From Anaeramoeba ignava BMAN (taxonomy: Eukaryota; Protista; Anaeramoebae): 64,000 bases of DNA. The stretch is from contig JAPDFW010000057.1 of the NCBI GenBank assembly GCA_028826165.1, positions 434,001-498,000 on the forward strand. The letters run 5' to 3'. Made by a program: the position numbers and the translations under genes. The notes below the pieces were generated by a model, which ran no database searches, was not told the DNA's origin, and saw only the letters and a list, made by a program, of their open reading frames with translations. Shown one piece after another: positions 1 through 64,000 of the stretch (within the stretch, counting starts at the first letter, position 1; every line of letters begins with the position of its first letter).

Positions 1-1410
1 TAATGCTTTTTCAATTGGTACTTTATCATCAATATCTTTTTGTGAGCGATTAATAACTGGAATATATCCTAATTTGAGCGGATAAACTTTCCCATTCAAA
101 ATTTCAATAACATCAGTTCCTTTGTTCATTATATCTATTTTGGTTAATACTCCTATTGTTCTATCTCCTGCTTTATCTACTTTGGATGACATTTTGATTG
201 CTTGATTTAGTGCAAAATCTTCGTTTGCTGGAATTACTGCTAAAATTATTGCATTTTCATTTGAAATATATTTTTTCACTAAATTTTCAATTTCTTCTAC
301 TATTTCTTCTGGTTGTCCTTTGATTGGAACTTGTATTAATCCTGGGAGATCAACTAATGTAAGTTCTGGAACATTTGGTAAATAGAACTTTTTTTTAAAT
401 TTTAATTTTAATTTTAATTTTAATTTTAATTTTAATTTTAATTTTAATTTTAATTTTAATTTTAATTTTGAATTTAAAAATGAATTTAATTTTGATTTTA
501 TAAATGAATTTAATATTAATTTTATAAATGAATTTAATTTTAATTTTGATATTAATTTTAATATTTAATTTTAATATTTAATTTTATAAATGAATTTTAT
601 AAATGAATTTTATTTTAATTTTGATTTTTAATTTTATAAATGAATTTAATTTTAATTTTATAAATGAATTTAATTTTAATTTTATAAATGAATTTAATAT
701 TTAATTTTAATATTTAATTTTAATATTAATTTTATAAATGAATTTAATTTTATTTTTAATTTTAATTTTAATTTTATAAATGAATTTAATTTTATAAATG
801 AATTTAATTTTAATTTTATAAATGAATTTAATATTAATTTTATAAATGAATTTAATTTTAATTTTAATTTTAATTTTAATTTTAATTTTATAAATGAATT
901 TAATTTTAATTTTATAAATGAATTTAATTTTGATTTTAATTTTGATTTTAATTTTAATTTTAATTTTGATTTTATAAATGAATTTTATTTTGATTTGAAA
1001 AAAAGAAAACAAACTGTTAAATCAATTGGTTCAGATGAAACGTGAAAAGGTTGAGTAAGAATATTTGTAAATCTTTCAATTTCCTTTTTAACATCATTAA
1101 AATTAGTAAAAGTTTTATCTAAATGAGAAAAAACAGCCCATTCAGTAACATTTTCATTAGGAAATTCTGGATTAGGAATAGCAACTCTTTGAATATGAAG
1201 AATTAAAGGACATCTAGTTACCATATTAATTCCTCTTGGAAGAAAATCTTTTTCAACAATATGTTCAAGTACAGATGATTTTCCTGAACTTTGTCCTCCT
1301 ACTACTACTATTTGTGGTAAATCTAATAATGTTGGATCTATTCTTAAAAAATCAAATTGTATTTTCCTTATAACTGAAATTAGACTTGAAAAATTTTTAT
1401 TATGTTCCAT
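1..1410 (-). CDS. Dynamin-related GTPase (5' part; runs off the left edge). Exons 1410-1015, 387-<1
   Basis: G1 'VVVGGQSSGKSSVLE' and G2 'VTRCPL' in exon 1. After GT-AG intron 1014-388 the frame continues 'FYLPNVPELTLVDLPG' (G3) and 'RTIGVLTKID' (G4). Confidence 0.95.
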
Positions 1411-1544
1411 TTCAAAAAAAAAATGAAGAGAAAAAAATGAAAAAAAATTAAATTTAAAAAAGGAAAAAAGGAAAAAAGGAAAAAAATTTGAATTTTTTTT
1501 TCCCAAGTTTCTTTTAATTTTTTTTAATTGAAATGATCAAAAAT

Positions 1545-1815
1545 TAAATCAAAATTAAATCAAATAATATTTTTCAATTCAATTCAAATATTCTTTTTCT
1601 ATTTAATTTAAATATTCTTTTTCAATTTAATTTAAATATTCTTTTTCAATTTAATCTAAATAATATTTTTCAATTCAATTCAAATATTCTTTTTCAATTT
1701 AATTTAAATATTCTTTTTCAATTTAATTTAAATATTCTTTTTCAATTTAATTCAAATATTCTTTTTTAATTTAATTTAAATATTCTTTTTCAAATCAAAT
1801 ATTCTTTTTTAAATA
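1545..1815. repeat. ~23-bp intergenic tandem repeat (AAATATTCTTTTTCAATTTAATTT-like)
   Basis: About 10 imperfect copies between the FG-GAP stop codon and the dynamin start. Confidence 0.85.
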
Positions 1816-1833
1816 TTCTTGTTAAATTTAAAT

Positions 1834-4317: not shown

Positions 4318-4462
4318 TATTAGAAAATAATGAAAAGAAATTGAAAAAAGAAAATTAAATTGTTTTGTTGAAAATTCATTATTAGAAAAAAATGAAAAAA
4401 AATGAAAAAAAAAATTTTCATTTTTTCTTTTTTTTTTTTTAAAATTTTCTTTTAATGCAAAA

Positions 4463-7400
4463 ATGTTGATGCATAATAGAATAAACTTCAGGGAAAAACC
4501 AGCAAACAAAACACCTACGGAATTAATGAAAGAAATGCGACAGGAAAGCCTAATTGAACTGATTGAAAATCCAGAAAAAACAAGTAACGAATTTCAGAAA
4601 TCACTACAAAATGAACGACTTCAGATCAACGAAAATCTAAACGAGACCATCTTCACATTTGGGGCGCATCAGCGGAGTTATGACCTACCAAAAGTACTGA
4701 ACATAATCACGCAAAACATAGAGAGTGGCGGGATTGAAAGGAAGCAAATGGAACGGGAAAAAGAAGAAAAGAAACATGATGAAAATAACGAGATTGAGAA
4801 GACACAAGGCAAGAAGAAGACGAAGAAACGGACGGAGAAGAAAAAGGAGCAGAAGATTGACAAGAAGAAAAAGAAGTTTGTTGCGAGTAAAAAGGTAGTG
4901 GAACTGACGCGAAAATTCCGACAGCAGCAGTTCGACCCCGTTCATACAACAAGGGAGTATTGCCGACAGAACAATGAAACGAAGATTGAGAAGACGTTGA
5001 ATATATTGGCAGAAAAGCGAGAGCAGGCGTCACAAAGACTACGTGAAAAAGTTCTCGAAAATTATCAAAGTTTTATTCAAACGTCAAACGTCATTTCTCA
5101 AATGGAAAATGACTTGCAAATTATGCATAAATTATTGGAAGAAAATGTTTCAAATGTCAAAGAAATGGAAATTTTTACTACTTACGAACATACGTTCAAT
5201 AACTTGGAATTAATACCTCTTTTTGCAGAAAAAAAAAACGAGCTTCTTCAACGCGAAATATCTGCAAAGCTCGTTTGGATTTTTAATTCACCACAAAGAC
5301 TTAAATTATCGATCAAACAACGCAACTTCCAAAATTGTGTTGATTTAATTGAAAAAGTTCTTGATGTTTTGAACAAAAATTCCAATTTGCAGAGGATCCA
5401 ACTTGTGAAAACACACAAGGATCATGTGCAACCTGATGAACTTTCAAAGCCCAAATTTTTTGTCGAAATTTTTAAACGGAAAATCGAAAAAAAACGGGAG
5501 AAATTGTGTAAAGTTTTATACGCCACTTTGAACAGTCCTGCAATTAACAAACAAGAAAGTCGCGAGTGCTTGAGTCTTCTTGTACGGCTCGGAAAGTCTG
5601 AGGAGGCTCAGAACTTCTTTCTTGAAAGCCGTCGCGAATTAATAACCAAAAAAATAAAGGAAATTCAATTTGAAGGCGATCTTTTAATTTATGTTTCCGA
5701 ATTAAGCAAGCGTGTTTTTGTTGCCTTGCGACAGACTTGTGAGGACTTTCGTTCCTCTTTTGTTTTCAAGCCCACGTTTTCAAGTCTTATTATTTGGCTC
5801 ACCCAAGAAATTGAGCGACTCATTTCCATTTTATATCGTCAACTTCATCATACTAATAATTTTCAAATCATAATTGAATGTGTTGGAATTGTTAATCGTT
5901 ATCATCATCTTACTCTACAGAATATTGGAATTGATATTTCTTTTCTTTTTCCTCAGTATTTTTTCCCTTTGATTGCAACTTCTTTATCTGGTTATGTTGA
6001 TAGAATTAAAAATACCTTCTCAAAATTAGTTGCTGAAGAGCAATGGGTTTCTAAGGAGTTGATTTTGCAGAGAAAGGAAGCTAATGTTCTTCAGCAAACA
6101 AATGAGAAGAGGAATACTTCTGGTAATTTATATATATAAAATTTAAATCAAATTTAAATCAAATTTAAATCAAATTTAAATCAATTTTAAATCAAATATA
6201 AATCAAATATAAATCAATTTTAAATCAAATATAAATCAAATTTAAATCAAATATAAATCAAATTTAAATCAAATTTAAATCAAATTTAAATCAAATATAA
6301 ATCAAATTTAAATCAATTTTAATATCAAATTTAAATCAAATTTAAATCAATTTTAAATCAATTATAAATCAAATTTAAATCAAATATAAATCAAATATAA
6401 ATCAAATATTAAATCAAATTTAAATCAATTTTAAATAAAATTTAAATCAAATTTAAATCAAATTTAAATCAAATTTAAATCAAATTTAAATCAAATTTAA
6501 ATCAAATTTAAATCAAATTTAAATCAAATTTAAATCAATTTAAATCAAATATAAATCAAATATAAATCAAATTTTAAATCAAATTTAAATCAAATATAAA
6601 TCAAATATAAATCAATTTTAAATAAAATTTAAAAAAATAAGAAATACCATCAAATACACCAACTTCAGTAATCATAAAACTTAGCCACAGCGCAAGAGAA
6701 TTTTACACATATATCAACAACTTTGTTGCAGATGTTAGTGAAATAGTCAGCATAGAACTCTATTCACATGTGATTAATTCAGTTGTTGAATTATTCAACT
6801 TTTACATTTCACTTTTAAACAAAAAAATGTTCCAATACATTAGCTCAGACATTCGAGACGCAATCACAATCATCTCGAATTCCTTGAACATTTTTAGCGA
6901 TCTTTTGCCTCGAGTAATCGATCGTTTTGAGCATTTACTCAAAAGACCAGCAAATCAACTGAATGCTCTTATTCATCAACTTTCACAAAAACATTATCAA
7001 ATGATTGAATCCTTTTCACAGCATTTCGCAAGAGTTCTTGTTTCTTCGGATTCATTCAGAGAATTAATGGCAACTAATTATTATGCAAAAACTGTTGATT
7101 TGGAATCAGCAGTTCCATCAAAAACAATAACAGATGCAATGATTGCAATTTTTTCACTTCCAACAAAATTCGAAAGATCAAATTTATCCATTGAAATGAT
7201 TGACGAAATCGTTTCTCTTTGTATTTATGAAATTACAGAAATTTATGCCAATGAAGCTAAAGACTGGGAAAAATTTAAGCATATTGTATTCTATGAAGGT
7301 GGATTGCAGCAAATTGTTCTTGATATGCAATTCATCCGCAGATGTTCAAGATTTCTTGATAATAAAAAAATTCTTGAAAATATCACTCAAGTTACTAAAT

Positions 7401-7687: not shown

Positions 7688-10994
<3,307 letters not shown>

Positions 10995-13259: not shown

Positions 13260-13356
13260 TTAATTTTATAAAAAAAATTGAAAGAAAAAAAATGGAAAAT
13301 GATTTGACTTTGAAATTTGTTTTTTAAATTTTTTTTTTCAAATGACTTTTACTTGT

Positions 13357-16580: not shown

Positions 16581-16594
16581 TGGAATATCGAAAA

Positions 16595-23789
<7,195 letters not shown>

Positions 23790-26245: not shown

Positions 26246-27683
26246 ATGGGATTATTTAAACTTTTTAAAAAAAAGAAAAAAACAACAAAAAGACGCTCAA
26301 ATTCTAATTCCATTTCAAATTCAAATTCTATTTCTAATTCAAATTCAAATTCAAATTCAAATTCTAATTCTAATTCTAATTCTAATTCAAATTCTAATTC
26401 TAATTCTAATTCTAATTCAAATTCTAATTCTAATTCACCAATAATTAATCAAAATAACCGACGTTCTTTTTTACATCATCAAATTTATACATTTGATTCA
26501 AATCGAGTTTCAAATCATTCAATAAATTTTTATAAAGCAGAATTATCACCATTACAAGCTAATAAAAAACCTTTTTGTGAAGCTTTATTTGGATTTGATG
26601 CTCAAAATGAAGATGAATTAAGTTTTCAAGAAGGTGATAAAATTGAATTATTATCTGAAGATGGTGATTGGTGTTTAGGAAGACTTAATGGTCGTAGTGG
26701 TATTTTCCCAAAGAATTATGTGAAAATATTAAATGGTTTGTTCGAAATTTAAATATAATATTAAATATAATATTAAATATAAAATTAAATATAATATTAA
26801 ATATAAAATTAAATATAATATTAAATATAATATTAAATATAATATTAAATATAATATTAAATATAAAATTTAGAAGAAAAACAAGAATTAAAAATGGAAG
26901 CAATAAAGGATTATCGAGGATTTAATGAAACTGAAATTACTTTTCAAAAAGGTGATCTAATTAAAATTATAGAAAAAAGTAACCAACAATGGTGGAAAGG
27001 AGAAATAAATGGAAAAAAAGGACTTTTTCCAGCACATTATGTTAAAGAATATGTAGGTGAAAGAGTAAAATTACCAAAAGTTTTTGTTGATAAATTTGAA
27101 AATATGGGATTTGAAGAATCAATAATTCAAAAAGCTTATGAAAATTTAGGATATCCAAAAATTCAAGATGAAGATCAAATTTTCAATGAATTATTAGATA
27201 AAATTGTTGAAATGATTGATGAAAAAGAAAAATCAATAAAAGAAGAAAATGATGAACAAGAAAAATCAAACAGAGAAGAAAGTGATGAACAAGAAAAATA
27301 TATAGAAGATGAAGATGAAGATGAAGATGAACAAAAGAAATCAAATCCAAATCCAAATCCAAAATCAAAATCCAAATCCAAATCCAAATCAAAATTCAAA
27401 TCAAAATCAAAATCCAAATCAAATTCAAAATCAAAATTTAAATCAAAATCAAAATCAAAATCAAAATTTAAATCAAAATCAAAAAAAACTTGTTGATTTA
27501 GATTCTTTTAATGAAAATAAAATGTGTAAAATTTGTCTTGAAAGAGAAAAAGATTCTCTTCTTCTTCCTTGTCGACATTATGCTTTATGTTATCAATGTG
27601 CAAAAATGATTAAAGAAAAAACTAAAGAATGTCCAATTTGCAGAAAACCAATCATTTCAATTTTAAAATTATTTGATGTTTAA
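26246..27683 (+). CDS. SH3-SH3-UBA-like-RING E3 ubiquitin ligase with a possible N-myristoylation site. Intron 26736-26873; apparent +1 indel near 27361
   Basis: Two SH3 domains ('ALFGFDAQNEDELSF...W...GIFPKNYV' and 'AIKDY...EITF...WWKG...GLFPAHYV'); UBA-like 'FENMGFEESIIQKA'; RING-HC 'CKICLE...LLPCRHYALCYQCA...CPICR' in the next frame after an NP/NQ repeat; N-terminus MGLFKLFKKKKK. Confidence 0.85.
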
Positions 27684-31139: not shown

Positions 31140-34100
31140 ATGCAAAATACTCAAGAATTTGATTATTTACTTCAAAGAGTAATTGAAGAATCTTTAAAAG
31201 ATGAACAAAAGGAAATGTTAATAAAAACTTTTTCAAGTTCAATAAATCCTAATGATCTTTTGAGAGATGAAAATGTTCCAGTTGGTTTATCAAATGTTGG
31301 AAATTCTTGTTTTATAAATGCGTTATTACAAGTTTATTTTATGATTCCAAAGTTTAGAATGGAAATACTTCGTTCTTATCCAGAAAAGAAAATGTGGAAA
31401 GAATTAAAGAAAAAAGAACCATCTCTTGAAAAAGCATTTCCTTATTATCCTTGTATTTTCAAAACCAAAATGATTTTATTTATTAATTTATTTATTAAAT
31501 TTATTTATTTTTAATTTATTTATAAATTTATTTATTAAATTATTTATTAATTTATTTATTAAATTATTTATAAAATTAATTATAAAATTATTTATTAATT
31601 TATATATTAAATTATTTATTAAATTATTTATTAAATTATTTATAAAATTATTTATAAAATTATTTATAAAATTATTTATTAATTTATTTATTAAATTATT
31701 TATAAAATTATTTATTAAATTATTTATAAATTAATTATTTATTAATTTATTTATTAAATTATTTATTAATTTATTTATAAAATTATTTATTAAATTATTT
31801 ATTAATTTATTTATTAAATTATTTATTAATTTATTTATTAATTTATTTATTAATTTATTTATTAAATTATTTATTAATTTATTTATTAAATTATTTATTA
31901 AATTATTTATTAATTTATTTATTAAATTATTTATTAATTTATTTATTAAATTATTTATTAATTTATTTATTAAATTATTAATAAAATTATTTATAAATTA
32001 TTAATAAAATTAATTATAAAATTATTTATAAAATTAATTATTAAATTATTTATAAAATTATTTATTAAATTATTTATTAATTTATTTATTAAATTATTTA
32101 TTAAATTATTTATAAAATTATTTATAAAATTATTTATTAAATTATTTATTAATTTATTTATAAAATTATTTATTAATTTATTTATTAATTTATTTATTAA
32201 TTTATTTATTAATTTATTTATAAAATTATTTATTAATTTATTTATTAAATTATTTATTAATTTATTTATAAAATTATTTATAAAATTATTTATAAAATTA
32301 TTTATTAAATTCTTATTTATTAATTTATTTATTAAATTATTTATTAATTTATTTATAAAATTATTTATAAAATTATTTATTAAATTATTTATTAAAATTA
32401 TTTATTAATTTATTTATTAAATTATTTATTAAATTATTTATTAATTTATTTATTAATTTAATTATTAATTTATTTATAAAATTATTTATAAAATTATTTA
32501 TTAAATTATTTATTAAATTATTTATAAATTATTTATAAAATTATTTATTAAATTATTTATTAAATTATTTATAAAATTATTTATTAATTTATTTATTAAA
32601 TTATTTATTAATTTATTTATTAAATTATTTATAAAATTATTTATAAAATTATTAAATTATTTATTAATTTATTTATAAAATTATTTATAAAATTATTTAT
32701 TAAATTATTTATTAAAATTAATAATTAATTTATTTATAAAATTATTTATAAAATTATTTATTAAATTATTTATTATTAAATTATTTATAAAATTATTTAT
32801 AAAATTATTTATAAAATTATTTATTAAATTATTTATTAAATTATTTATTAAATTATTTATTAAATTATTTATTAAATTATTTATAAAAATTATTTATAAA
32901 ATTATTTATAAAATTATTTATTAAATTATTTATTAAATTATTTATTAAATTATTTATTAAATTATTTATTAAATTATTTATTAAATTATTTATAAAATTA
33001 TTTATAAAATTAATTATTAAATTATTTATAAAATTAATTATTAAATTATTTATAAAATTATTTATAAAATTAATTATTAAATTATTTATAAAATTATTTA
33101 TTAAATTATTTATAAAATTATTTATAAAATTATTTATAAAAATTATTTATTAAATTATTTATAAAAATTATTTATAAAATTATTTATTAAATTATTTATA
33201 AAATTATTTATTAATTTATTTATTAAATTATTTATTAATTTATTTATTAAATTATTTATTAAATTATTTATTAAATTATTTATTAAATTATTTATTAATT
33301 TATTTATTAAATTATTTATTAATTTATTTATTAAATTATTTATTAAATTATTTATTAAATTATTTATTAAATTATTTATAAAATTATTTATAAAATTATT
33401 TATTAAATTATTTATTAAATTATTTATTAAATTATTTATTATTCAAAATTTATTAATTTATTTTCAAAAATTATTTTAAAAATTATTTATAAAATTATTT
33501 ATAAAATTATTTATTAAATTATTTATAAAATTATTTATTAAATTATTTATTAATTTATTTATAAAATTATTTATAAAATTATTTATTAATTTATTTATTA
33601 AATTATTTATAAAAATTATTTATTAATTTATTTATTAAATTATTTATCAATTTATTTATTAAATTATTTATTAAATTATTTATTAAATTATTTATTAAAT
33701 TATTTATAAAATTATTTATTAAATTATTTATTAAATTATTTATAAAAATTATTTATTAAATTATTTATTAATTTATTTATAAAATTATTTATTAAATTAT
33801 TTATTAAATTATTTATAAAATTATTTATTAAATTATTTATAAAATTATTTATAAAATTATTTATTAAATTATTTATAAAATTATTTATTAATTTATTTAT
33901 AAAATTATTTATTAAATTATTTATAAAATTATTTATAAAATTATTTATTAATTTATTTATAAAATTATTTATTAAATTATTTATTAAATTATTTATTAAT
34001 TTATTTATTAAAATTATTTATTAAATTATTTATAAAATTATTTATTTATTTATAAAATTATTTATTAATTTATTTATAAAATTATTTATTAAATTATTTA

Positions 34101-36853
34101 TTAATTTATTTATTAAATTATTTATAAAATTATTTATTAAATTATTTATAAAATTATTTATAAAATTAATTATTAAATTATTTATTAAATTATTTATTAA
34201 ATTATTTATAAATTTATTTATTAAATTATTTATTAATTTATTTATTAAATTATTTATTAAATTATTTATTAATTTATTTATTAATTTATTTATTAAATTA
34301 TTTATTAAATTATTTATAAAATTAAATATTAAATTATTTATTAAATTATTTATAAAATTAAATATTAAATTATTTATTAAATTATTTATAAAATTATTTA
34401 TTAAATTATTTATAAAATTATTTATAAAATTATTTATTAAATTATTTATAAAATTAATTATAAAATTAATTATTAATTTATTTATAAAATTATTTATAAA
34501 ATTATTTATAAAATTATTTATAAAATTATTTATAAAATTATTTATTAATTTATTTATAAAATTATTTATTAAATTATTTATTAATTTATTTATTAAATTA
34601 TTTATAAAATTATTTATAAAATTATTTATTAAATTATTTATAAAATTAATTATTAATTTATTTATAAAATTATTTATTAAATTATTAAATTATTTAGTAA
34701 TCCTTGAACTACAAGAACTATTTGCTTTTTTAATTCTTTCTAATAAGAAATACTTCAATCCTATTAATACTCTCAAAAAAATTTTTGAAATTCAAAATAC
34801 TTCACTCGCACTTGGAAACCAAGAAGACATTACAGAATTCAATCATTTATTTTGTGAAGCTGTTTCTAAAGCACATTCAGATATGGCAATCAAAAAATCA
34901 AATCAAAATCAGGAATCAAAAAAACAAATTGAAGAATTACTTTTTGGAAAAGAATTCCACAAAATTGAAGGAAAAAAAGTCAAAGACGGAAAAAGATTCA
35001 TGAGAATTCATGAACCAAGTTTTGGGCAAATTATTCTCAATTTAAATTCCAATGATTTATATTTAAGTTTAAATCAATATGTTAAACGAGTACCAATAGA
35101 TTTCAAATTGGATGATGAAGAAACTAAAGATTCAACACAGCAAATATTATTTGAGAAGTTACCACCGATATTAACATTTCAACTGCAAAGAGTTCAATAC
35201 GATTTTGTGAAAAACAAAGCAATCAAAAATAATACGCCTTTCCATTTTGATAAAATTATTTATATGGATCGTTATCTTCATTCCAAAAATGACGATTTGG
35301 CAAAAAGTGTTAATAAAACTTCTGATGAGGAAATTGCAAAGCGTAACAAGGAAATACAGCAATTAATCAACTACAAAGAATCTGGAAAGTCGGTTGTGGA
35401 GATTCTAAATCTTGCGATTGATTTTTTGGAGAATCAAGAAGAAAAACCAGACAAAAAAACAATTGAAGAATTAACTCAAAAAAGGGATCAAAACCAGAGA
35501 AAAATCAAGGAACTTGAGCGAGAAAGAGACTTGCTCAAAAAGGCAGAAAACATGCCTTTTCAAAACATGAGGGAACATCCTTATGCATTGTTTGCAGTTG
35601 TGATCCATTCGGGATTGGCAATGAGTGGACACTATTATTCATATATCAATGATATTCGAACAGAGAAATGGTGGAAATTCAATGACAGAATTGTTTCACA
35701 AGTTTCTGAGAAACAAGTTTTTGAGGAAGGAATTGGTGATGGTGTCTCAAAAGGCGCATATTGTTTGTTCTATCACAAAATCAGTATTCACAAAAAAAGC
35801 CAAAAAATTATCCAAAATTTATCTGATAAAAGTTCTGTGTTCTTTCTTCCAAAAAATTATGATTATATCCCACAAGAACTTAAATCAACAGTCGAAAAAG
35901 AAAATAAGAATTTAGAAGACGAAATTTTCGAATTCAATCTCGTAAAAGATTCTCAGATATCAAGAAAAATCAAGGAATTCAAAACACAAATTTCTCATCG
36001 TTTTAAACAAATTGAAACAGAAAATTCACAAAAAAATGAAACAGATGATCCTTTCTTGAAATCTTTTATCCATTTTGTTATTAGTAAAAAGCATTTTTCA
36101 TACGCAAAATTTTTGATTGCAAAACAAATATCTCCAGAATTTATTGATTCAAAAAACAAAGAAAAAGGATTAGAAACTTTAGTAAAAAAAGAAATGAACA
36201 ATTTATATGATTTAAAACAAGGCGAAGAAGAGAAATTGAGCAAAGAATGGGAAGAATATCAACTAGATACAAAAAAAGTTTGTTATAAAAACAAAATATT
36301 ATTTTTCCCTAATTCCAAAAAAAAAATTCTCACTTTTTTCTGTTTTCTTTTTCTTTTTTTTTAGATGTTATTTGGAATTCAATTAATACTTAAGAAAGAT
36401 TTGGAAAGAGCAACAATCCAATTATTATTAACTTATCATGAAATGAAATCAAATCAAAGAGATACTCAAGGAATCGAAATTATTCTCCAACAAGCTTTAT
36501 TAGAATATTATCAAGGATTTAATCAAAAACAATTTGTTTCATCAACTCCAAATTTAGAAAAGGCAAAAAGTATTTCATCACTTGTCGGAACTGTTTTCAA
36601 TCACGAGAAGATATTCGAACCCTTCTTTCAAAAAATTAGACCTTTTTTCTCAAATTTAGTTGAATTTGTTGTGACTAAAACAGAAAATTCCAAAGTTATT
36701 CCAGATCTTTATGAAATTAATCAAAATTTCATTTCTCCATCAAATACAAATTTTCAATTATTTGGATCACCTCAAATACTCAATTCAAAAAAATCTTTGT
36801 TTCAAAAAAGGAAAAGTTGTTTCATCAATTTACTTAAAAGATCTTTTATTTAA
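31140..36853 (+). CDS. Ubiquitin-specific protease (USP25/28- or Ubp2-like) with an N-terminal UIM-like motif. Introns 31453-34697, 36278-36364
   Basis: Cys box 'GLSNVGNSCFINALLQ'; 'GNQEDITEF' restored after the 3245-bp intron; 'LPPILTFQLQR'; His box 'YALFAVVIHSGLAMSGHYYSYI...WWKFND'; coiled-coil insertion inside the catalytic domain; 'LQRVIEESLKD'. Confidence 0.92.
31473..34695 (+). repeat. Intronic, almost pure A/T satellite (11-bp units such as AAATTATTTAT with T/A variants)
   Basis: About 3.2 kb in which I see no G and only four C. Confidence 0.95.
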
Positions 36854-38763: not shown

Positions 38764-41700
38764 ATGAATTCCAAAAAAGAAAAAATTCAAGTTCAATCAA
38801 TCAAAAAATATCCAAAAAAAGTAAATTTTTCTCAACAAAATTCCACTACTAATTATCAAATAAATACTGAAAGCATTAATAGAATTCCTTCAATTCTTGG
38901 AGAGAATGATTTACTTCCTTCTCATTTGTTTTATGAAGAAAAAGGAGTAAATAGACCTTCAATAGCACATTTGAAACAAAATGAAAAACCTTTAGAACAA
39001 AATTCTCAAGTATTGAAAAAAAATTGAAAACGAACCATCTTTTTGAATTTTAATTTTGATTTTGATTTTGATTTTAATTTTGTTTTTGATTTTGTTTTTG
39101 ATTTTGATTTTTGATTTTAATTTTGATTTTGAATTTTGATTTTGATTTTGATTTTAATTTTGAATTTAATTTTAATTTTAATTTGATTTTTGTAATTTAA
39201 ATAGATTCCAAGTAATGATGAAAGAATAAATCATAACATTGGAATGGGAGCTGGAGTTATTGCCAGGTCTATTTTAAGTTTAATTGGAGTAATTTACTTT
39301 CTTCGTCTTGGGTTTATTGTTGGATATGCTGGAATTGGATTTGCTATTCTAATCATCATTCTTTCAACATTAGTCACTATCATAACAACATTATCACTTT
39401 CAGCAATTTCATCAAATGGAAGAATCTCAGCAGGAGGTCCATATCATGTTATTTCACGTTCATTGGGTCATGCATTTGGAGGAGCAATTGGAATAGTCAT
39501 TTCTTTATCATTTGTTATAAGTGTAGCTCTATATGCAATGGGACTTGCTGAGACAATGGTTGAGACTTTGGGTTTGAGGATGAGCTCTTCTTTTTATGTT
39601 GAGAGATTATTGTGGGGCTGGATTTTCATGTCTGTTATGTTTCTTGGTATTATTAACGGACTTAGTGTTGTTATTAAAATCCAAGTTTTTCTTCTGGTTA
39701 TTTTGATCATTTCCATTTTATTCATTTTAAGTTCAAGTTTTGGAAGAAATTACTCAAAAGAAATTTTTTGTGAGAATTGGAAACCGTCTTTCACTCACAA
39801 TCAAGATTTTTTCAGTATTTTTTCTTTATTTTTTCCTGCAGTAATAGGTAAAAAAAAAAAAATTTCAAAAACAACTCAAAAAAAAAAGAGGAATAAAAAT
39901 TGATTAAGTAAAAATTATTATCAATGAAAAAAAGGAATTCTCCCACCGAGTAATATTTCAGGAGATTTGAAAACACCACAAAAGGCATTACCTAAGGGAC
40001 TTTTAACTGCTGTTTTGATAACAAGTACTCTTTATCTTCTTACAACACTTATGCTTGGAGCAATTGTTCCTCGTTCAGGAGATTTGGGATTAAAACATAA
40101 TTATTTTATCTTCAAAGAGATTTCTTTTTGGAAGCCAATAGCTTATGTTGGGTTATTTGCAGCAGCATACAGTTCCTCTCTTTCTTCATTTTTATCAGGA
40201 CCAAATATTTTTCAAGCTGTTTGTGAAGATCGGTTGTTTCCAAAAGCGATTAATTTTTTTGGGAAAATAAGTGGATCCAAAAAATTGCCATACAGAGCTA
40301 TTGTGCTAAGTTATTTTTTGTCATTTCTTGCAATACTTCTTGGAGAAATCAATAGGATAGCATCTTATACAACAGCTTTTTTTTTGCTTGCATTTTCATT
40401 GATTAATTGGGCATGTTTCCAAGCTTCAATAGCTCATCTCCCGAGTTTCAGACCTGCCTTCAAATACTACAATCCTTATCTTGCTTTGTTTGGAACAATT
40501 TTGAGTATTGCTCTGATCTTTCTTATCAATTGGATTTCTGCATTGGTTTCTTTAGTTGCTGTTTTGATTCTTTATAAATATCTTGATCTAAGGAAATTGG
40601 ATGTGAATTGGGCTGCAAATCGTGATGGAAGACAGTATTTGAAGGTGCTAAATTCACTTATTAGGTTTGGGAATGTGAAAGAGCACGCAAAAACATTTCG
40701 ACCTGGATATCTATATTTATCAACTTCTACTCCTACCTCTTCCAGAAATTTCTCTCTAATAAACTTCTTTTCTGAATCTTTGAAAGAAGGAAAAGGGATG
40801 TTTATGTTTGGAGAAATTTTGATGGCACAAGAATTGGAAGAGGAGATGAATCGTTCAAAATGGATTGAGCAACGAAATGGATTTATTCATTGGGCTCATT
40901 CTCATTCAGTTAAGATCTTTTATGATATTTTGATTGCAAACTCTTTTCAAAAGGGAGCCAAAAATTTACTTTTATTAACAGGAATTGGGAATTTTAGGCC
41001 GAATATTGTTGTTTTAGATTTTCTTGAGAATTGGAATCAAGAAGAAGAATTTACTAATAAAAATAATACTAATGAAGAAACAAATACTGAATTTATAACA
41101 GAAAACAATTTATCAATTATAGAAAATGAAAAAGAATTTAACAATAATTTAGAAAGAATTGATATTTTTAATACTATTAATAATGAAGAAACAAATACTG
41201 AATTTATAACAGAAAACAATTTATCAATTATAGAAAATGAAAAAGAATTTAATAATCAAAATAATACTAATGAGAAAGAATTTATAACAGAAAATAATTT
41301 ATCAATTGATAATGAAAAAGAATTTAATAATCAAAACAATACTAATGAGAAAGAATTTATAACAGAAAATAATCTATCAATTGATAATGAAAAAGAATTT
41401 AATGATCAAAACAATACTAATGAGAAAGAATTTATAACAGAAAACAATTTATCAATTGATAATGAAAAAGAATTTAATAATCAAAATAATACTAATGAAG
41501 AAACAAATACTGAATTTATAACAGAAAACAATTTATCAATTATAGAAAATGAAAAAGAATTTAATAATCAAAACAATACTAATGAGAAAGAATTTATAAC
41601 AGAAAACAATTTATCAATTGATAATGAAAAAGAATTTAATGATGATGACTTACAAAGAATTGATATTTTTGATACTATTTTTGGAGAAAATGAAAAAGAA

Positions 41701-51800: not shown

Positions 51801-52610
51801 TCGAGTGTGAGTCTAGCAAGAGATAACACAAAAATAATAACTTTTGGGAACTGGGATGACACAATCCGAATATGCATTCAAGACACGGAAAAAGTGATCT
51901 ATTCAATACAACCTGTGCATCAAGAAACAACAACAAGTTGTGTTTGTATACCTGATGGATCTGGAATAATCACTGGTGGATCAAAATCAATTATCACAAT
52001 TTGGAATTTAAATAATGATTCAAAAGAAAACTTTTTTATTTCGCTCAAAAGACAGCTTTTTGGCCATACAGACACTGTTCTTTCTCTTGATGTCTCTCTT
52101 GACTTCCGTATCTTTGTTAGCGGCTCAAAAGACTGTTCAGCTATTATTTGGGATCTTGATTCTCTTAACTGTGCTTTCTCTTTGGATGATCATGTCGGTT
52201 CTGTTACTCATGTTGCTATTAGTCCTCAAAATGGTGATATTGTTTGCTTTGCTTCTGATTCAATTTGTCAACGAAATCAATTGAGTTTATGGTCAATTAA
52301 CGGTCATCTTATTGCCAGAAAAAATTTCCCTAATTTTAACAATTCTTTGGTTAGTTCAATTTTATTTTCTCCAAAAAGTGTTGATCTTGTAAATCAATGG
52401 CTTTTTACAGGAATGGTGAATGGAGATATTATAATTTGGGATGCTTTTGATTTACAACAGGTTTTATGTTTGAATAGTCCTGAAAATTCTCCTGTAAATG
52501 GTCTTTGTTTTTCAACTGATTTGAAGATTTTATTTTCTGGTCATTCAAATGGAAAAATTATTTCTTGGGGATCTTCTTCTAAAAAAAAGAACAAAGAAAA
52601 GAATTATTGA
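42820..52610 (+). CDS. Giant BEACH-domain protein (ConA/LamG-like, PH, BEACH, WD40; LYST/neurobeachin-like). Intronless, with apparent +1 indels at ~50540-50562 and ~51420
   Basis: '[13 protein letters not shown]', '[28 protein letters not shown]', 'HYGTHYS', 'FDLPDRLF', then in the +1 frame '[11 protein letters not shown]' and '[12 protein letters not shown]', and after a second shift WD40 repeats such as 'GHTDTVLSL...[14 protein letters not shown]'. Confidence 0.93.
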
Positions 52611-52851: not shown

Positions 52852-55800
52852 TCAGATATCATTATTAATATCATTTTCATTATCATTATCATTATCATTT
52901 TCACTTTCATTATCATTATCACTATCATTATTTTCATTTTCAATATCATTTTCATTATCATTTTCATTATCATTTTCATTTTCATTTTCATTTTCATTAT
53001 CATTTTCATTTTCATTTTCATTTTCATTTTCATTTTCATTATCAATATCATTTTCATTATCAATATCATTTTCATTATCAATATCATTTTCATTTTCATT
53101 ATCATTATCATTTTCATTTTCATTTTCATTTTCATTTTCATTTTCATTATCATTTTCATTTTCATTTTCATTTTCATTTTCATTTTGATTTTCATTATCA
53201 TTTTCATTTTCATTTTCAATATCATTTTCATTATCAATATCATTTTCATTTTCATTATCATTATCATTATCATTTTCATTATCATTATCATTTTCATTTT
53301 CATTTTCATTATCATTTTCACTTTCATTTTCACTTTCATTTTCAATATCATTACCATTATCATTATCATTATCATTTTCATTTTCATTTTCATTTTCATT
53401 ATCATTATCATTTTCATTTTCATTTTCATTTTCATTACCATTATCATTATCAATATCATTATCATTATCATTTTCATTTTCATTATCATTTTCATTTTCA
53501 TTTTCAATATCAATATCATTATCATTATCATTATCACTTTCATTTTCATTATCATTTTCATTTTCATTATCATTATCATTTTCAATATCATTTTCATTTT
53601 CATTTTCATTTTCATTTTCATTTTCATTATCATTTTCATTATCATTATCATTTTCATTTTCATTTTCATTTTCATTTTCATTATCATTTTCATTTTCACT
53701 TTCATTTTCATTTTCACTTTCATTATCACTATCATTATCATTTTCATTTTCACTATCATTTTCAATATCATTTTCATTATCACTAGGAGAAATATCAAAA
53801 ATATAAATGGAATTCTTAATACCATTAAGTCTTTTCCATCTTCCTAAACGATGTTCATAACTAACACAAACAAATAACTTTTTTAAATCTGAAGTAATCT
53901 CCATTGAATTAACACAACCATTAATTTGAATATTATCAATATTAACAAAAGATTTCAAATTTCTTGAAATTGCCCAAACTTTAACAAATCCATTATCACT
54001 TCCAGAAAAAAAAACATTTTTCTTTGGAATTGTAAGCAAAAAAGTGATCCAATTTCCATCATGAGCATTTTTCTTTTGAAATAATGGATTTTTTTTAGAA
54101 GTTTTCCAGAGAACTAAAGAGCCATCTTGTCCACCAGAAACAAATAAATTTGTATTGAGCATTTTAACACAATCAACTGAAGAAATGTGAGTATTTTCAA
54201 AAACTAAATGTGAATCTTGAGCACAGTTCCACAATCTGCATGTTTTATCAGCTCCAGATGTTACTGGTCCCATAAAATCAAATGAATCAATTGATGTGCA
54301 TATATTTGTATGTCCATAAAATGTTCCACTTTCTGCTTTTTCATCTAAATTCCATGATTTCATAGTTTCATCTTCTGAACATGTAAAAAATTCACTTGTT
54401 TCATTTCCAAATACTAATCCTGTAATTGCTGAATTATGTGCTTTCATTACAGTATTACACTCCATTGTTTTCCCATCTATTACATATACATATCCATTTG
54501 ATCCACCTGCAAGAATTCGATATTTTATACTATCAAATGCTAAAGATAATATTCTTGTTTTATCCTCATTAAAAAACATTTTGCATTGGAAATTGTTTGT
54601 ATTCACTATAAATTTAAAATAAATTGAAATAAATTTTAAATTTGAAATAATTTTGAAATAAATTTGAAATAAATTTGAAATAAATTTGAAATAAATTAAA
54701 ATAAATTGAAATTTAAATAAAATTGAAATAAATTTGAAATAAATTTGAAATAAATTTGAAATAAATTTGAAATAAATTTAAAATAAATTGAAATAAATTT
54801 GAAATAAATTTGAAATTAATTGAAATAAAATTGAAATAAATTTGAAATAAATTTGAAATAAATTTAAAATAAATTGAAATAAATTTGAAATAAATTTGAA
54901 ATTAATTGAAATAAAATTGAAATAAAATTGAAATAAAATTGAAATAAATTTGAAATAAATTTGAAATGAATTTGAAATAAATTTGAAATAAATTTGAAAT
55001 AAATTTGAAATAAATTTGAAATTAATTGAAATAAAATTGAAATAAATTTGAAATAAATTTGAAATAAATTTGAAATAAATTTGAAATAAAATTGAAATAA
55101 AATTGAAATAAATTTGAAATAAATTTGAAATAAATTTGAAATAAATTTGAAATAATTTGAAATAAATTTGAAATGAATTGAAATAAATTTGAAATAAATT
55201 TGAAATAAATTTGAAATAAATTTGAAATAAATTTGAAATAAATTTGAAATAAATTTGAAATAAATTAAAATAAATTTGAAACAAATTAATATAAATTTGA
55301 AATAAATTTGAAATAAATTTGAAATAAATTTGAAATAAATTTGAAATAAAATTTTAAATTTGAAATAAATTTGAAATAAATTTGAAATAAAATTTTAAAT
55401 TTGAAATAAATTTGAAATAAATTTGAAATAAATTTGAAATAAAATTGAAATAAATTTGAAATAAATTTGAAATAAATTTGAAATAAATTTGAAATAAATT
55501 TGAAATAAATTTGAAATAAATTGAAATAAATTTGAATTAAATTTGAAATAAATTGAAATTGAAACAAATTTTAAATAAAATTGAAATTAAAATAAATTTG
55601 AAATAAATTTGAAATAAATTAATATAAATTAAAATAAATTTGAAATTAATTGAAATAAATTGAAAATAAATTTGAAATAAATTGAAAATAAAATTGAAAT
55701 TAATTTGAAATAAATTTGAAATAAATTTGAAATTGAAATAAATTTGAAATAAATTTGAAATTGAAATAAATTTGAAATAAATTTGAAATTGAAATAAATT

Positions 55801-56543
55801 TAAAATAAATTTGAAATAAATTTGAAATAAATTTGAAATAAATTTGAAATAAAATTGAATTAAATTTGAAATAAAATTGAAATAAATTGAAATAAATTGA
55901 AATAAATTTGAAATATTGTTGAGTTACTTCTTGTAATATCTCCTCTTTTATTTCCAAAAAATAGATTTTGATTATCATTTGAAATGCAAGAACAAGTAAT
56001 TGGAAGACTTCTTTTTCTTTTTATGATTCCTTGACGATTCCCCATTTTCAAAGATTTCATATATAAAGTAATATCTTCTAAATAACTTTTCTTCTTCATA
56101 TCATCTTCTTTCTTCAATTTCTTTGATAATTCTTTTTTTTCTTTTTTTGAATATTGATATAATTCTTCATCTTCTTTTTTTGTTTTTGTTTTTTCTTTAT
56201 CCGTAAATTTTTCAAGTATTTTCCTCGCAATTCTAATACGTTTTTCATCAGGTGATTCATTGTCTTCAATACTTGGAATATCTTTTTCTGTTATTTTCCC
56301 CATTTCTCTTTGTGATTTGTTTGTTTTATTCCTTTTAATTCCGAAAAAATTTTGATTTTGATTTTGATTTTGATTTTGATTTTGATTTTGATTTTGATTT
56401 TGATTTTCATTTTCATTTTCATTTTCTGAAGATTCAATTTCTTCATCTTCAATTCTTTGATTTGGTAATTGTTGCACTTTTTTTCTTTTCTTATTTTTTC
56501 TTTTATTATGAATTGGAAGGAAAAAAGGATCTTTGAAAGACAT
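52852..56543 (-). CDS. RRP9: U3 snoRNP WD40 protein RRP9/U3-55K with a ~310-aa N/D/E tail. Intron 55927-54606
   Basis: 'DPFF', 'ESPDEKRIRIARKIL', WD40 repeats, 'VTSGADKTCRLW', 'FVSGGQDGSLVLW..SKKNPL', diagnostic 'EHRLGRW'. Confidence 0.88.
54620..55915 (-). repeat. Intronic 11-bp satellite (ATTTCAAATTT on the sense strand)
   Basis: About 1.3 kb of AAATTTGAAAT units on the + strand, inside the RRP9 intron. Confidence 0.93.
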
Positions 56544-59800: not shown

Positions 59801-62074
59801 AAAAATAAAAATTATATTTAAAATGAAAATAAAAATTAAAATTAAAATTAAAATTAAAATTATATTAAAATTAAAATATGATATAAACCTTTCTTCGAAA
59901 AGTGCCAAAAATGCAATCACAAACATAGCATTCATTACATTGTTCATCTGGAATCCATTCAGGTGGTTCCATTTCTTTTTTTATTTCTTGTTCAATATGT
60001 AATGTTTTAGTATTTCTTTCATACTCTTCAATAGTATTTTTGAAATGTTTAATCCAATTTTCTCTTTTCTTCTTTAGATTCAGCAAAAATTGTATATTTT
60101 TTATCCATATTTTGTATAAAAAATTGCAATTCTAAAATTATAAAAATAAAGCAAATAAAGAATAAGGAAAATTTTTTCATATTTTCTTTGTTATTAATTA
60201 AATACGTTGTGGATCTCCTTCTTCAATTGAACAAAAATTAATTTTCATTATTCGATAAAGCTAAAAAGATTGATAATATAAATTTAAAAATAAATTTAAA
60301 AATAAATTTAAAAATAAATTTAAAAATAAATTTAAAAATAAATTTAAATATAAATTTAATAATGAATTTAAAAATAAATTTAATAATAAATTTAAAAATA
60401 AATTTAAAAATAAATTTAAAAATAAATTTAAAAATAAATTTAAATATAAATTTAAAAATAAATTTAAAAATAAATTTAAAAATAAATTTAATAATGAATT
60501 TAAAAATGAATTTAATAATGAATTTAATAATAAATTTAATAATGAATTTAATAATAAATTTAAAAATAAATTTACGGTATAACTCCCACTTGATTCTGTT
60601 CCATAAATGATAATATCATTAAAAAGAAAGAAGTGAAGTTTAATTTTTTTTGTTCCATATAATTTGTGAAGAGGAGAATCATAAATATATTTCCTATGTG
60701 GAGCAACAAGATCTTTCTAAAAAATATCAAAAACAAAAAAAAAACAGAATAAGAATAAGAATAAAAATAAATTTGTTTAAAAAAATGTAAATAATCAAAA
60801 TCAAACAAGAGCTTTATTTGAGAATTTTTTTTGGATTGCTAAAATTTTGGCATCATTTTCTCGTTTGTGAATTGATTCATTAACAAAATTATTAACTTTT
60901 GTAATCTCTTCTTGAGCTTTAACTAGGTCTGTATAATCACAATGGGATTGATCTGTATTACTAACTAATTCCTAAATATTATAGATTTTAAAAATTTTTT
61001 AAATAATTGAAAAAAAAAATAATTGTTTTTTAAAAATAATAAATCAATTCACTTTCAAAAGAAGTTGATAACGAGGAAGCCTTTGAACAGGCATGATTAA
61101 AAAACTTGGTAAATCAAGTAAATTATGTTCCATTTTTTTTTCCTTTAAAATTATAATTCATTTATAAAATTATAATTAAAATTAAAATTAAAATTAAAAT
61201 TAAAATTAAAATTAAAATTAAAATTAAAATTAAAATTAAAATTAAAATTAAAATTAAAATTATATTTAAAATTAAAATTATATTTAAAATTAAAATTAAA
61301 ATTATATTTAAAATTACTTGTGCCCATGATGAAAATTTAGGAGTTTTAGCAAATTTCTCTAATGTTTTTGTTGTATTATCATAATTTTCAATGTAATTTC
61401 GATAAATTTTTAAAAATGGAATCTAATCAAAAAAATAAAATAAATTTAATTTAATTTATTTCATTCATTTTCTAAAATTGATTACAAATTGTAAAAAAGC
61501 TTTTCCAATTTTTGCTTCATCATTCCAAGGATTCATACAAATAGCAAGTTCAGAATATAATTGAAAATTTACCTGTAAAAAAAATATTATTTATTATTAT
61601 TATTTATTTTTTTAGAATTTTAAATTGTTTTTTTTTTCTTTTTTTACTTCAAGAATAGATTTAATTGAATCAAAAATTGCTTTAATATCTTTTTCAGAAA
61701 TAAATGAACGATCATTTTTAGCGAAATTAATTAATTCATTTGAAAATTCCTAAATTAAAAAAAAAAAAAAAAGATTTAAAGAAGTTTTTTATTTATTTTT
61801 CCAAATTATTTTTCCAATTTATTTTTATTTTTACATTTGCAAGAATTGTTAATTTTTTTATATAAACATCTTCTGTTGTAAATATTTCATTTGCAACTTG
61901 ATGTCTCATTGAAGTAAATCCATTTATAGATTTTGGATTTTCTTGATTTATTTCATCTTTATTTATTTATATAATTTTTTTTTTAATAATTAATTAAATA
62001 AATAATTAAATTGAAAATAATAATAATTTTAAAATATTTATACTTAAATTTTGTTCTTTCTCTTGTTCAATCAT
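56842..62074 (-). CDS. FGD/Frabin-like RhoGEF (DH-PH-FYVE) with a long repetitive C-terminal tail. Introns 62043-61957, 61834-61750, 61647-61573, 61485-61423, 61317-61143, 61052-60972, 60806-60717, 60575-60261, 60205-60132, 59888-59788; apparent +1 indel at ~60065
   Basis: Spliced DH motifs 'RHQVANEIFTTEDVYIKKL' and 'LPSFLIMPVQRLPRYQLLLKEL'; PH 'FFLFNDIIIY...ENWIKHF'; FYVE 'WIPD..CNECYVC...FRRKHHCRNCGNIVCGSCS...RVCDIC'. Confidence 0.92.
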
Positions 62075-62304
62075 TTAAAAAAAGAATAAAAAAGAATAAA
62101 AAAGATGAAAAAAAAAATGAAAAATTAAAAGGAGAAAAAAAAATAAATTAAAAAATCTTTTTCTTTTTCTTTTTCTCCTTTTAAAAAAAAAATCAAACAA
62201 ATCAAAAATAAATTTTTTTTTTCATTTTTTTCATTTTTCTCTTTCATTTTATTATTATTTTTATTATTATTTTCATTATTATTATTATTATTTTTATTAT
62301 TATT

Positions 62305-64000
62305 ATGCAAAAAGTTAAAAATGAAGAAATAAATGAAGTTGAAAAACAAATTCAAAAAATTAGAGTTGAAATTGAAGAAATTTATCAAAAAGAAAAACAA
62401 TTTTCAAATAATATTTCAATTTTTTCATCATTACAAACACAACTTTCAATTCTTCAACTTAGATTATTATCATTTGAAGAAGATTTAAGACAATTAATTA
62501 AAAAAAATGAAAGTAAACATTTTCAAAATTGAATTTAATTTTGAATTTAATTTGAATTGATTTTAAATTGATTTGAATTGATTTGAATTTGAATTTAATT
62601 TGAATTTAATTTTAATTTTAATTTTAATTTTAATTTTAATTTTAATTTTAATTTTAATTTTAATTTTAATTTTAATTTTAATTTTAATTTTAAATTTAAT
62701 TTGAATTTAAATTTTAAATTTAAATTGATTTGAATTTTAAATTAATTTTAAATTGAATTTAATTTGATTTAAATTGAATTTAATTTTGAATTGAATTTGA
62801 ATTTAATTTGAATTGATTTTATGATAAAAAATTAGATCACGATTCATCTCATAAAAAATCAAGCTCAAGAAAACATAAACAAAATTCTAGATCAAATCAA
62901 AATCATAAAACAGATCATCATATTAATAGTAATGAAAAAAAAAGAACTAGAATTTCTTCTAGAAATTTACTTCCTGCTCTTCAAAGTAAATAAAATTTTT
63001 TTGTTATTATATTATATTATCTTTTATTTTATTGATAAAAAAAAAATAAAGATGTTTCTAATAATAGTAATCAACAAGAAAATGAAAATGAAAATGAAAT
63101 TGAAAATGAAAATGAAGTTGAAAATGAAGAAATGGAATATCAAGTAAATGAACTAAAATTTATTGGAAGAGATGATCAAATTATTAGATTAGCTCATGCA
63201 TTTTTTAAAAATATTGAAGCTCAAGAAAATTCTGCACATAAATTTATTCTTTGTTATTCTTGTCAAAATTATGGGATGGGAAAAACATTTTTTGCAAATC
63301 ATTTTCTTGAAAGACTTCGTGAAATAATCAAGGAATCTCAAGGAAAAAACTTACTTAGATTTACAAACATCGGCAAATTAATAAATGCTAGATATGTTTA
63401 TATTGATCTTCAAACAGCAATTACGGAAGGAAAAGTTAAATTTGATACATTTTTTATGAAGCAAATGCTTCAACAAATACCCGAATTGGAACAAGATTTT
63501 AAACCAGAGTTATTGCATTTTGAAACAGTTTTAGAAAATATGCAACAAGGAATATTTTTGCATATCGATAATTTAGATTCAATTATAAAAGTGAATAAAC
63601 ATGAAGAATTGAAGTAAAACAAAAACAAAAATCAAATCAAATCAAATCAAATCAAATCAAATCAAATCAAAATTATAAACTTAATATTAAATCCAAAGTA
63701 ACCAATTAGATCAATCATCTCGAATTTTTGATATTTTCTGGAGACAGCATTTAAAAAGACTTTTGAAAATCAAAAATTTATTCTTGCTTTGCTCATCTCA
63801 TTTGCCTGCATTCCAATTCTTAATAAACTTCCCTCCAAATAAAAGTGTCCCACCTTCTCGAACTTGCTCTTTGCAATTAAACCCTTTGAATAAAGAAGAT
63901 ATCAAACAAATTTTAGATTTGACTAAAATAAACAACCGCTACACATTATCATCGATAATGTTTGAACAAGAGGAACAAAAAAATAATTTTATTGAATATT
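62305..64000 (+). CDS. STAND-like P-loop NTPase with an N-terminal coiled coil (partial, runs off the right edge). Introns 62513-62835, 62986-63051, 63614-63698
   Basis: 'FIGRDDQIIRL', Walker A 'QNYGMGKT', Walker B-like 'IFLHIDN', later 'LNPLNKEDIKQIL'. All three splices keep an open frame to the end of the window. Confidence 0.75.

Follow-up and report, generated by a model that had tools for sequence, protein, structure and literature searches.

The question raised by a 64,000-nt stretch of the genome of Anaeramoeba ignava BMAN, an anaerobic amoeba of the Metamonada with extremely AT-rich DNA (GenBank assembly GCA_028826165.1, contig JAPDFW010000057.1, positions 434,001 to 498,000 of the forward strand; hereafter the window, numbered from its first base) is how introns of a single gene can be recognized through two unlike forms of 5′ splice site, or donor. 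The introns were rebuilt gene by gene through six-frame translation, and all counts are limited to this 64-kb window. The reconstruction gave 31 introns in 10 intron-bearing genes, all 31 with the GT...AG boundaries of U2-type introns, and by their first three bases the donors comprised 22 GTA, 8 GTT, and 1 GTG. Guanine at donor position +5 (+5G) was present in 1 of 22 GTA donors (GTAGGA, at 23132) and in 7 of 8 GTT donors (Fisher p = 3.0 × 10⁻⁵); either GTA or GTTTG opened 29 of the 31 introns, and both donor types occurred together in four genes (AMPK, CHD, USP, and RhoGEF). An initial annotation of the window had reported 31 introns, 22 GTA donors with one +5G, 8 GTT donors including 7 GTTTG, one GTGAAT, no GTAAGT, and two donor classes within single genes; our independent reconstruction reproduced these figures, and all seven coordinates quoted for GTTTG were correct. 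We conclude that the pattern is real and, in the literature searched, undescribed for A. ignava. That literature, on Anaeramoeba introns and splicing, contained no description of A. ignava splice signals (some supplements and all figures, where a splice-site logo may exist, lay outside the coverage), and the part of PMC10710043 examined held nothing on splice motifs.

The most frequent donor hexamers were GTAAAA (6) and GTTTGT (5), followed by GTATTT and GTAAAT (3 each) and GTAATT and GTTTGA (2 each), with GTAGAA, GTAGGA, GTATAT, GTATTG, GTAACT, GTATAA, GTAATC, GTAAAC, GTGAAT, and GTTTAT seen once. None of the 31 donors began with GTAAG, GTTAG, or GTATG. When the GTG donor was counted as non-A, +5G was present in 1 and absent from 21 of the +3A donors and was present in 7 and absent from 2 of the others (Fisher p = 1.0 × 10⁻⁴), and +3/+5 was the strongest among 36 position pairs (family-wise permutation p = 0.037). 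Unused exonic GTs had no such link, +5G being found in 23 of 205 GTA and 87 of 606 GTT; base composition is therefore not its source, and a dinucleotide background artefact was ruled out by the same lack of a link in decoy GTs. The introns are listed below with the last exonic bases and the donor hexamer separated by a slash.

388..1014, minus strand: dynamin gene intron 1, ACA/GTTTGT; acceptor A8G; Pfam Dynamin_N unbroken over the junction
6123..6641, plus strand: Exo84 intron, CTG/GTAATT; acceptor TAAG behind an A-run; reading frame only
10844..10909, minus strand: AMPK/SNF1 intron 1, AAA/GTATTT; gap-free homolog alignment
9827..10658, minus strand: AMPK intron 2, ATG/GTTTGT; gap-free alignment to intronless homologs
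9490..9685, minus strand: AMPK intron 3, AAA/GTAGAA; gap-free homolog alignment
8397..9124, minus strand: AMPK intron 4, TAT/GTTTGT; gap-free homolog alignment
23026..23132, minus strand: CHD-family helicase intron 1, GGA/GTAGGA, the sole +3A/+5G donor; joint in an X1 contig
22240..22305, minus strand: CHD intron 2, GAA/GTAAAA; X1 contig split into two pieces 6 letters apart, as the intron predicts
21575..21873, minus strand: CHD intron 3, AAA/GTAAAA; A-run acceptor; Pfam SNF2 positions 30/31
20626..20722, minus strand: CHD intron 4, AAG/GTAAAT; reading frame
20234..20307, minus strand: CHD intron 5, CAG/GTATAT; no in-frame alternative donor; Pfam scan
19795..19893, minus strand: CHD intron 6, GAG/GTTTGA; reading frame only, alternative donors exist
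26736..26873, plus strand: SH3-SH3-RING gene intron, ATG/GTTTGT; alternative donors upstream would cut the SH3 domain
31453..34697, plus strand: USP intron 1, CTT/GTATTT; 3245 nt, no internal AG
36278..36364, plus strand: USP intron 2, AAA/GTTTGT; reading frame only, one alternative donor
39010..39204, plus strand: SLC12 intron 1, CAA/GTATTG; reading frame only
39848..39934, plus strand: SLC12 intron 2, TAG/GTAAAA; acceptor A7G; Pfam AA_permease unbroken
54606..55927, minus strand: WD40 gene intron, GAA/GTAACT; 1322 nt, no internal AG
61957..62043, minus strand: RhoGEF-PH-FYVE intron 1, TAA/GTATAA; KAJ5077716.1 identity
61750..61834, minus strand: RhoGEF intron 2, AAT/GTAAAA; KAJ5077716.1 identity
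61573..61647, minus strand: RhoGEF intron 3, GAA/GTAAAA; KAJ5077716.1 identity
61423..61485, minus strand: RhoGEF intron 4, TTT/GTAATC; the shortest, 63 nt; KAJ5077716.1 identity
61143..61317, minus strand: RhoGEF intron 5, CAA/GTAATT; KAJ5077716.1 identity
60972..61052, minus strand: RhoGEF intron 6, AAA/GTGAAT; KAJ5077716.1 identity and Pfam scan
60717..60806, minus strand: RhoGEF intron 7, CTT/GTTTGA; KAJ5077716.1 identity
60261..60575, minus strand: RhoGEF intron 8, ACC/GTAAAT; KAJ5077716.1 identity
60132..60205, minus strand: RhoGEF intron 9, AAC/GTATTT; KAJ5077716.1 identity
59788..59888, minus strand: RhoGEF intron 10, AAG/GTTTAT, the sole +3T donor without +5G, exonic AG; Pfam FYVE 24/25
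62513..62835, plus strand: unnamed gene intron 1, AAA/GTAAAC; open frame from ATG 62305
62986..63051, plus strand: unnamed gene intron 2, AAA/GTAAAT; 3n, stop-free, the least certain intron
63614..63698, plus strand: unnamed gene intron 3, GAA/GTAAAA; reading frame from ATG 62305

Support beyond the reconstruction was obtained for 21 of the 31 junctions, comprising 2 from RNA contigs, 9 from identity to an NCBI protein, and 10 from homology (4 in AMPK and 6 through Pfam continuity or domain integrity); for the other 10 the reading frame was the sole basis. The RNA contigs belong to run X1, the kind of which is unrecorded; they proved to be spliced and skipped two CHD introns with exact boundaries (donors GTAGGA and GTAAAA). 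Most of the CHD stretch had no cover, which speaks neither for nor against its other junctions, and no GTTTG junction and no part of the RhoGEF region had direct RNA support. The spliced 326-residue RhoGEF model was identical to an A. ignava protein (P0127, KAJ5077716.1), and the nine junctions that agree with it do so with an annotation rather than with direct RNA evidence. The four AMPK junctions gave gap-free alignments to intronless homologs. The Pfam scan covered 27 exon pieces, 4 of which had no match, a search for the full-length annotated CHD protein returned no match, and all five matches to the C-terminal region of the ankyrin-BTB protein were A. ignava paralogs. An in-frame alternative donor lay no more than 45 nt away in 14 of the 31 introns, and one intron was 3n in length and stop-free. 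As side observations on the RhoGEF gene, a frameshift near 60050 (minus strand), probably an assembly error, parts RhoGEF-PH from FYVE, and KAJ5077716.1 stops at 326 aa while the gene seems to continue to 56842.

A split this sharp might reflect a small sample combined with local A- and T-runs, the genome-wide donors forming a continuum that includes GTAAG and GTATG. The sample is 31 introns, against more than 30,000 in the genome (as reported for each Anaeramoeba isolate except A. pumila; bioRxiv 10.64898/2026.04.11.717937), a size that counts as well against the explanation preferred below. The family-wise p is only 0.037, the upper ends of the 95% intervals reach 23% for +5G among GTA donors and 11% for GTAAG, within the window introns TTG outnumbers ATG by a factor of 3.6 to 10, and ten junctions are frame-only. 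The decoy GTs without a link argue the other way, as do the presence of +5G in 7 of 8 GTT donors versus a 4% background (p = 5 × 10⁻¹⁰) and the persistence of the split in the 21 supported introns (+5G present in 1 and absent from 13 of the +3A donors, present in 5 and absent from 2 of the others; p = 0.0055). We regard a sampling effect as very improbable, the least probable of the alternatives weighed here.

The GTA donors showed nothing above background from +4 to +8 (p 0.1–0.45). The GTT donors carried +4T in 8 of 8 cases (p = 0.001), which includes every GTT donor with +5G; six of the eight had +6T and six had +7T (p = 0.06 in both cases). On the exonic side, −2A was enriched (observed in 22 of 31, codon-position expectation 12.5; p = 0.0008), as was −1G to a weaker degree (8 versus 4.1 expected, p = 0.04), and −2A was commoner in donors without +5G than in those with it (19/23 versus 3/8, p = 0.027); the lone +3T donor without +5G, at 59888, carries an exonic AG. 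Intron length and phase showed no evident difference between the donor classes, and an introner family was ruled out by eye, the GTT introns ranging from 87 to 832 nt with no common body.

Independence of +3A and +5G and an either/or alternative were evaluated with six background models. Independent contributions were rejected with all six (likelihood-ratio p from 2.5 × 10⁻⁵ to 9 × 10⁻³), and donors with neither +3A nor +5G, 2 of 31, reached 0.08–0.09 of their expectation relative to bare GTA. Donors with both +3A and +5G stood at 0.9 to 10 times bare GTA against background and hence were not depleted. The shortage of +3A among +5G donors gave p = 0.04 when the background was single-base and between 0.11 and 0.61 when it was trinucleotide, this weak significance arising from the large excess of TTG over ATG and AAG in the introns. 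The initial annotation had called +3A and +5G almost mutually exclusive; the negative link stands, and the exclusiveness was overstated, +5G in GTA donors being at background. GTTTG was 4- to 14-fold over bare GTA after background correction. The data thus amount to compensation plus an advantage of GTTTG; mutual exclusion is not proven, and when the intron trinucleotide background is modelled the data do not establish that +3A actively excludes +5G.

We favor, by a modest degree of confidence just past the midpoint, the explanation that a single ordinary major spliceosome takes either half of the donor and that AT-biased mutation likely strips the redundant half. In A. ignava A+T makes up 80.65% of the genome and 91.86% of intron sequence genome-wide (PMC11550330), and sense-strand G makes up 1.9% of the window introns. 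During splicing U1 hands the donor over to U5 loop 1 and to the ACAGA box of U6; there U6 C42 forms a pair with +5G, A43 lies opposite +4, and G44 makes contact with +3A (PMC11732430; PMC9803359). In the proposed mechanism, the 5′ half would be −2A with GUA and the 3′ half UGU, and either would suffice. GUA with −2A would be held by U1/U5-side contacts plus the U6 G44:A+3 contact; with +3U the G44 contact would be lost, and +4U and +5G (with +6U) would have to pair with U6 ACA while +5/+6 pair with U1. Under AT pressure +5G would decay wherever +3A is present, and GTTTG, if stronger than bare GTA or harder to escape, would be kept in roughly one donor in four. For the acceptor, the spliceosome would take the first AG after a minimum length in an intron almost devoid of G, a composition that would also aid intron definition. 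The initial annotation had offered a compensatory reading, U1-led for one class and U6-led for the other. Compensation is supported because both types coexist in genes and position independence is rejected; the label U1-led for GTA is weak because the only extra signals are exonic −2A and, weakly, −1G.

Comparison loci were drawn from metagenome contigs, in which a search for more Anaeramoeba DNA turned up 52 AMPK loci, none above 63% identity across the whole query; genome and viral contigs yielded none. Three shared positions accounted for 90 distinct introns, which came from 37 of the 52 loci; the remaining 15 loci had no such intron or were unparsed. These loci are 47–55% GC, mutually related, and probably fungal. 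The position of AMPK intron 1 was common to 31 distinct comparison introns, all 31 with +5G, and the A. ignava donor there is GTATTT. Across the comparison loci +5G was present in 60 of 61 GTA donors, both GTT donors were GTTTGT, and a plant-like locus had the donor AG/GTTTGA. Because shared-position introns and 60 of 61 comparison GTA donors carry +5G, its loss from GTA donors in A. ignava looks derived. The occurrence of GTTTG(T/A) in loci with ordinary donor sets indicates that GTTTG is usable in ordinary systems.

Pairing with U1 was estimated by a free-register duplex calculation in which pseudouridine was treated as U and 50 nearby decoy GTs served for comparison. The canonical U1 5′ end gave −3.6 kcal/mol for GTA, −3.0 for GTT, and −1.5 for decoys (GTA versus GTT, p = 0.56). 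A variant snRNA is not needed because canonical U1 pairs both classes about equally and because GTTTG is also found in comparison loci with ordinary donors; an Rfam scan of the window found no snRNA gene. A U1 register shifted by +1 was ruled out, the GTT donors all being GTTT (8/8) with GTTRAG in 0/8. Two U1 types could nevertheless act in the same genes, a canonical one on GTA and an Entamoeba-like ACAAAC variant on GTTTGT(T). Such a variant would bind GTT strongly and selectively (−6.75 versus −2.26 kcal/mol on GTA), the +4T, +6T, and +7T of the GTT class resemble Entamoeba GUUUGUU, the intermediates GTTAG and GTATG are missing, and there are precedents in Entamoeba and in Physarum, the latter reportedly with a modified U1 alongside the standard one (10.1101/2022.06.08.495308). 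The variant barely improved the separation of donors from decoys, however (area under the curve, AUC, 0.77 versus 0.75), canonical U1 alone treated both classes alike, selection by canonical U1 predicts a +4A/+5G enrichment in GTA donors of which none was seen, and a standard U1 is retained in the majority of lineages whose donors are atypical (10.1101/2022.06.08.495308). We hold two U1 types to be unlikely.

The identity of +4 bears on a different account, in which U6 lacks methylation, completely or in part, at the ACAGA adenosine and +5G helps only with +4U and harms with +4A. Two sets of donors would result, one paired with U6 through UGU and the other avoiding the U6 helix. Consistent with this, +5G was present in 0 of 15 +4A donors and 7 of 14 +4T donors (p = 0.011) and //GURAG was absent (0/31). 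In Arabidopsis fio1 mutants G+5 seems deleterious only with A+4 (PMC9803359), and +4U is favored without N6-methyladenosine (m6A; PMC11732430). An unmethylated U6 leaves the absence of GTATG (0/6) unexplained. It also conflicts with the presence in A. ignava of SNRNP27 and of a PTHR13393 member, which we take to be METTL16, an identity that a look-up did not confirm. The listed entries are M0811_11265 (PTHR13393) and M0811_06005 (SNRNP27), and LUC7, U1C, and SNRNP27 family proteins are listed as single copies (PMC11550330 supplement file 14), a listing that speaks for one ordinary spliceosome. The +4U preference is furthermore tied to intron-poor species (PMC10581693), whereas Anaeramoeba isolates hold more than 30,000 introns. 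An unmethylated U6 is, on balance, rather unlikely.

The excess of GTTTG over bare GTA, 4- to 14-fold with background correction, would also suit one lineage-specific U1, or U1 plus proteins, favoring +3U with +5G across Anaeramoeba, with the GTA donors degenerate and read mainly via proteins and exon/intron base composition. The GTTAGT donor of the 22 A. pumila introns and the near lack of pairing information in GTA donors point in the same direction. A U1 matched to GTTAGT separated donors from decoys worse than canonical U1 (AUC 0.62 versus 0.75), GTTAG was found in 0 of 31 window introns, and +3A is retained in 22 of 31, and we consider a lineage-specific U1 very unlikely.

Use of either donor half by one ordinary spliceosome thus has to be set against several contrary points. 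The PTHR13393 protein, presumably METTL16, sits badly with a U6-led +4U class in view of the effect ascribed to U6 m6A. That modification is described as destabilizing the +4U pair (PMC11732430). The conserved GTTAGT donor of A. pumila is again +3T with +5G. A purely neutral either/or model predicted only 2–7% of donors with non-A and +5G and was rejected, since 7 of 29 were seen (p 3 × 10⁻⁶ to 3 × 10⁻³), a 4- to 14-fold excess; GTTTG must therefore be granted some further advantage. Among +4T donors GTATG (0/6) and GTTTG (7/8) differed (p = 0.005), which hints at a real +3T preference, and summed 5′-half and 3′-half scores were not significantly anticorrelated (rho −0.16 to −0.27, p 0.14–0.40). 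Finally, averaged intron-intron consensus couplings are positive over 30 plant, animal, and fungal genomes, and the five lineage-marking couplings include no +3A:+5G term (PMC10599564).

Acceptors showed no pyrimidine enrichment (fraction 0.53 versus 0.50 in intron interiors, p = 0.43), pyrimidines made up less than half of the −16..−4 stretch in 12 of 31, and the A-run acceptors noted previously were borne out (A8G at 388, TAAG after an A-run at 6641, A7G at 39934). The earlier failure to see a conserved branch-point motif also held, with CTRAC in 0 of 31 introns, YTRAY in 14 of 31 versus 19.4 in shuffles, and no branch-region-specific 4- or 5-mer. Polypyrimidine tracts and branch consensus sequences are degenerate in many U2 systems, and their absence therefore does not exclude the U2 type. 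All 14 internal AGs ended within the first 61 bases, the shortest intron being 63 nt, and the 8,421 bases beyond base 62 of the 31 introns held 68 G and no AG. Counted by distinct contexts, A preceded 0 of 29 Gs past base 62 and 12 of 50 up to that base; for CT, the antisense dinucleotide, the count was 11 of 52. The acceptor is therefore the first AG beyond about 62 nt, a cut-off picked after the data were seen and in sequence much of which is simple repeat. AG avoidance as the cause of the absent GTAAG was ruled out because all 14 internal AGs sit within the first 61 nt, where AG is thus tolerated. GT was depleted inside introns (15 versus 62 expected). Separately, the long introns (394–974, 6139–6633, 9846–10589, 31476–34686, and 54608–55915) consist almost entirely of degenerate 6–12-nt tandem repeats, the unit differing per intron and none having a sense-strand AG, and the sole CAG acceptor, at 61573 (minus strand), directly abuts a donor-like GTAAAT at the start of the next exon.

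A further reading has two routes in the same genes: an ACAAAC-type U1 or an unmethylated U6 pool for GTTTG, and a nearly pairing-free route for GTA, with whichever AG comes first after some 62 nt of G-free sequence taken as acceptor. We judge it unlikely; if true, base composition would be the spliceosome's main guide to more than 30,000 introns. The window shows how little may suffice to mark introns in an intron-rich genome: three bases at the donor, an AG at the end, and an interior free of G.

The window has other features. Further frameshifts near 3670–3740, 27490, 50540, and 51400 lie mostly in homopolymers or repeats and are likely long-read errors; the genes affected encode a repeat-containing membrane protein (1834–4320, minus strand), the SH3-SH3-RING protein, and a BEACH-domain-like protein (42820–52610, plus strand), two of these three labels having been assigned by inspection only. 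The intergenic array at 13356–14883 repeats a 144-nt unit 10.6 times (96% identity), and the one at 24333–25486, which lies upstream of an HSP20-like gene, repeats a 19-nt unit 62 times. The three-intron gene at 62305–64000 (plus strand) runs off the window, with only weak Pfam matches to AAA_16 and PAS_8 (E about 0.01).

Among known systems, U12-type introns were ruled out by the absence of RTATCCT donors (0/31); a U11/U12 25K family protein, M0811_12254, is listed for A. ignava (PMC11550330 supplement file 14). By the features tested, the pattern falls outside both the two-class AG//GU versus //GURAG (U5/U6) system and the Entamoeba system. The former is alike in having two anticorrelated donor types in an intron-rich genome, and A. 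ignava lists SNRNP27 and a PTHR13393 protein, but in the window //GURAG occurred in 0 of 31 introns, AG//GU in 5, and neither in 26; −1G and +5G were not anticorrelated (p = 0.39), and the comparison of exonic match with intronic U6 match gave mixed results, −2A being less frequent with +5G (p = 0.027) and exon score and +4..+6 score giving rho −0.03. Entamoeba shares the GTTTG(T) motif, often with +7T, and has GUUUGU(U) at 88–90% of donors with a co-evolved ACAAAC U1 (bioRxiv 10.1101/2022.06.08.495308). It is intron-poor with constrained branch points, however, whereas A. ignava is intron-rich, and its window introns lack a branch motif and have GUUUGN at 7 of 31 donors, as opposed to more than 95% in an Entamoeba-type set. 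A. pumila, with 22 introns, a GTTAGT donor, a CT(G/c)AC branch point, and 53% GC (bioRxiv 10.64898/2026.04.11.717937), belongs to the same genus and shares +3T with +5G and the lack of a conserved 3′ signal beyond AG; it differs in +4A and a conserved branch point, where A. ignava has +4T and a second, GTA class.

The closest likeness is with mammals, in which a negative correlation links donor positions −3..+3 to positions +4..+6 (PMC4671708). The window introns likewise showed negative coupling of +3 with +5, and −2A was scarcer with +5G; they differ in being nearly all-or-none, in a 3′-half class with +4U rather than +4A, and in a 5′-half class mostly without −1G (4 of 22 with it). Because mammals show the same negative correlation, the pattern is an extreme case rather than a new kind of code, and it appears to work like known donor-site compensation. 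If the split holds genome-wide, A. ignava would separate the +3 contact from the +4..+6 helix, which are blended in animals and plants, and would provide a test of whether U6 m6A (METTL16) fixes +4A at +5G donors.

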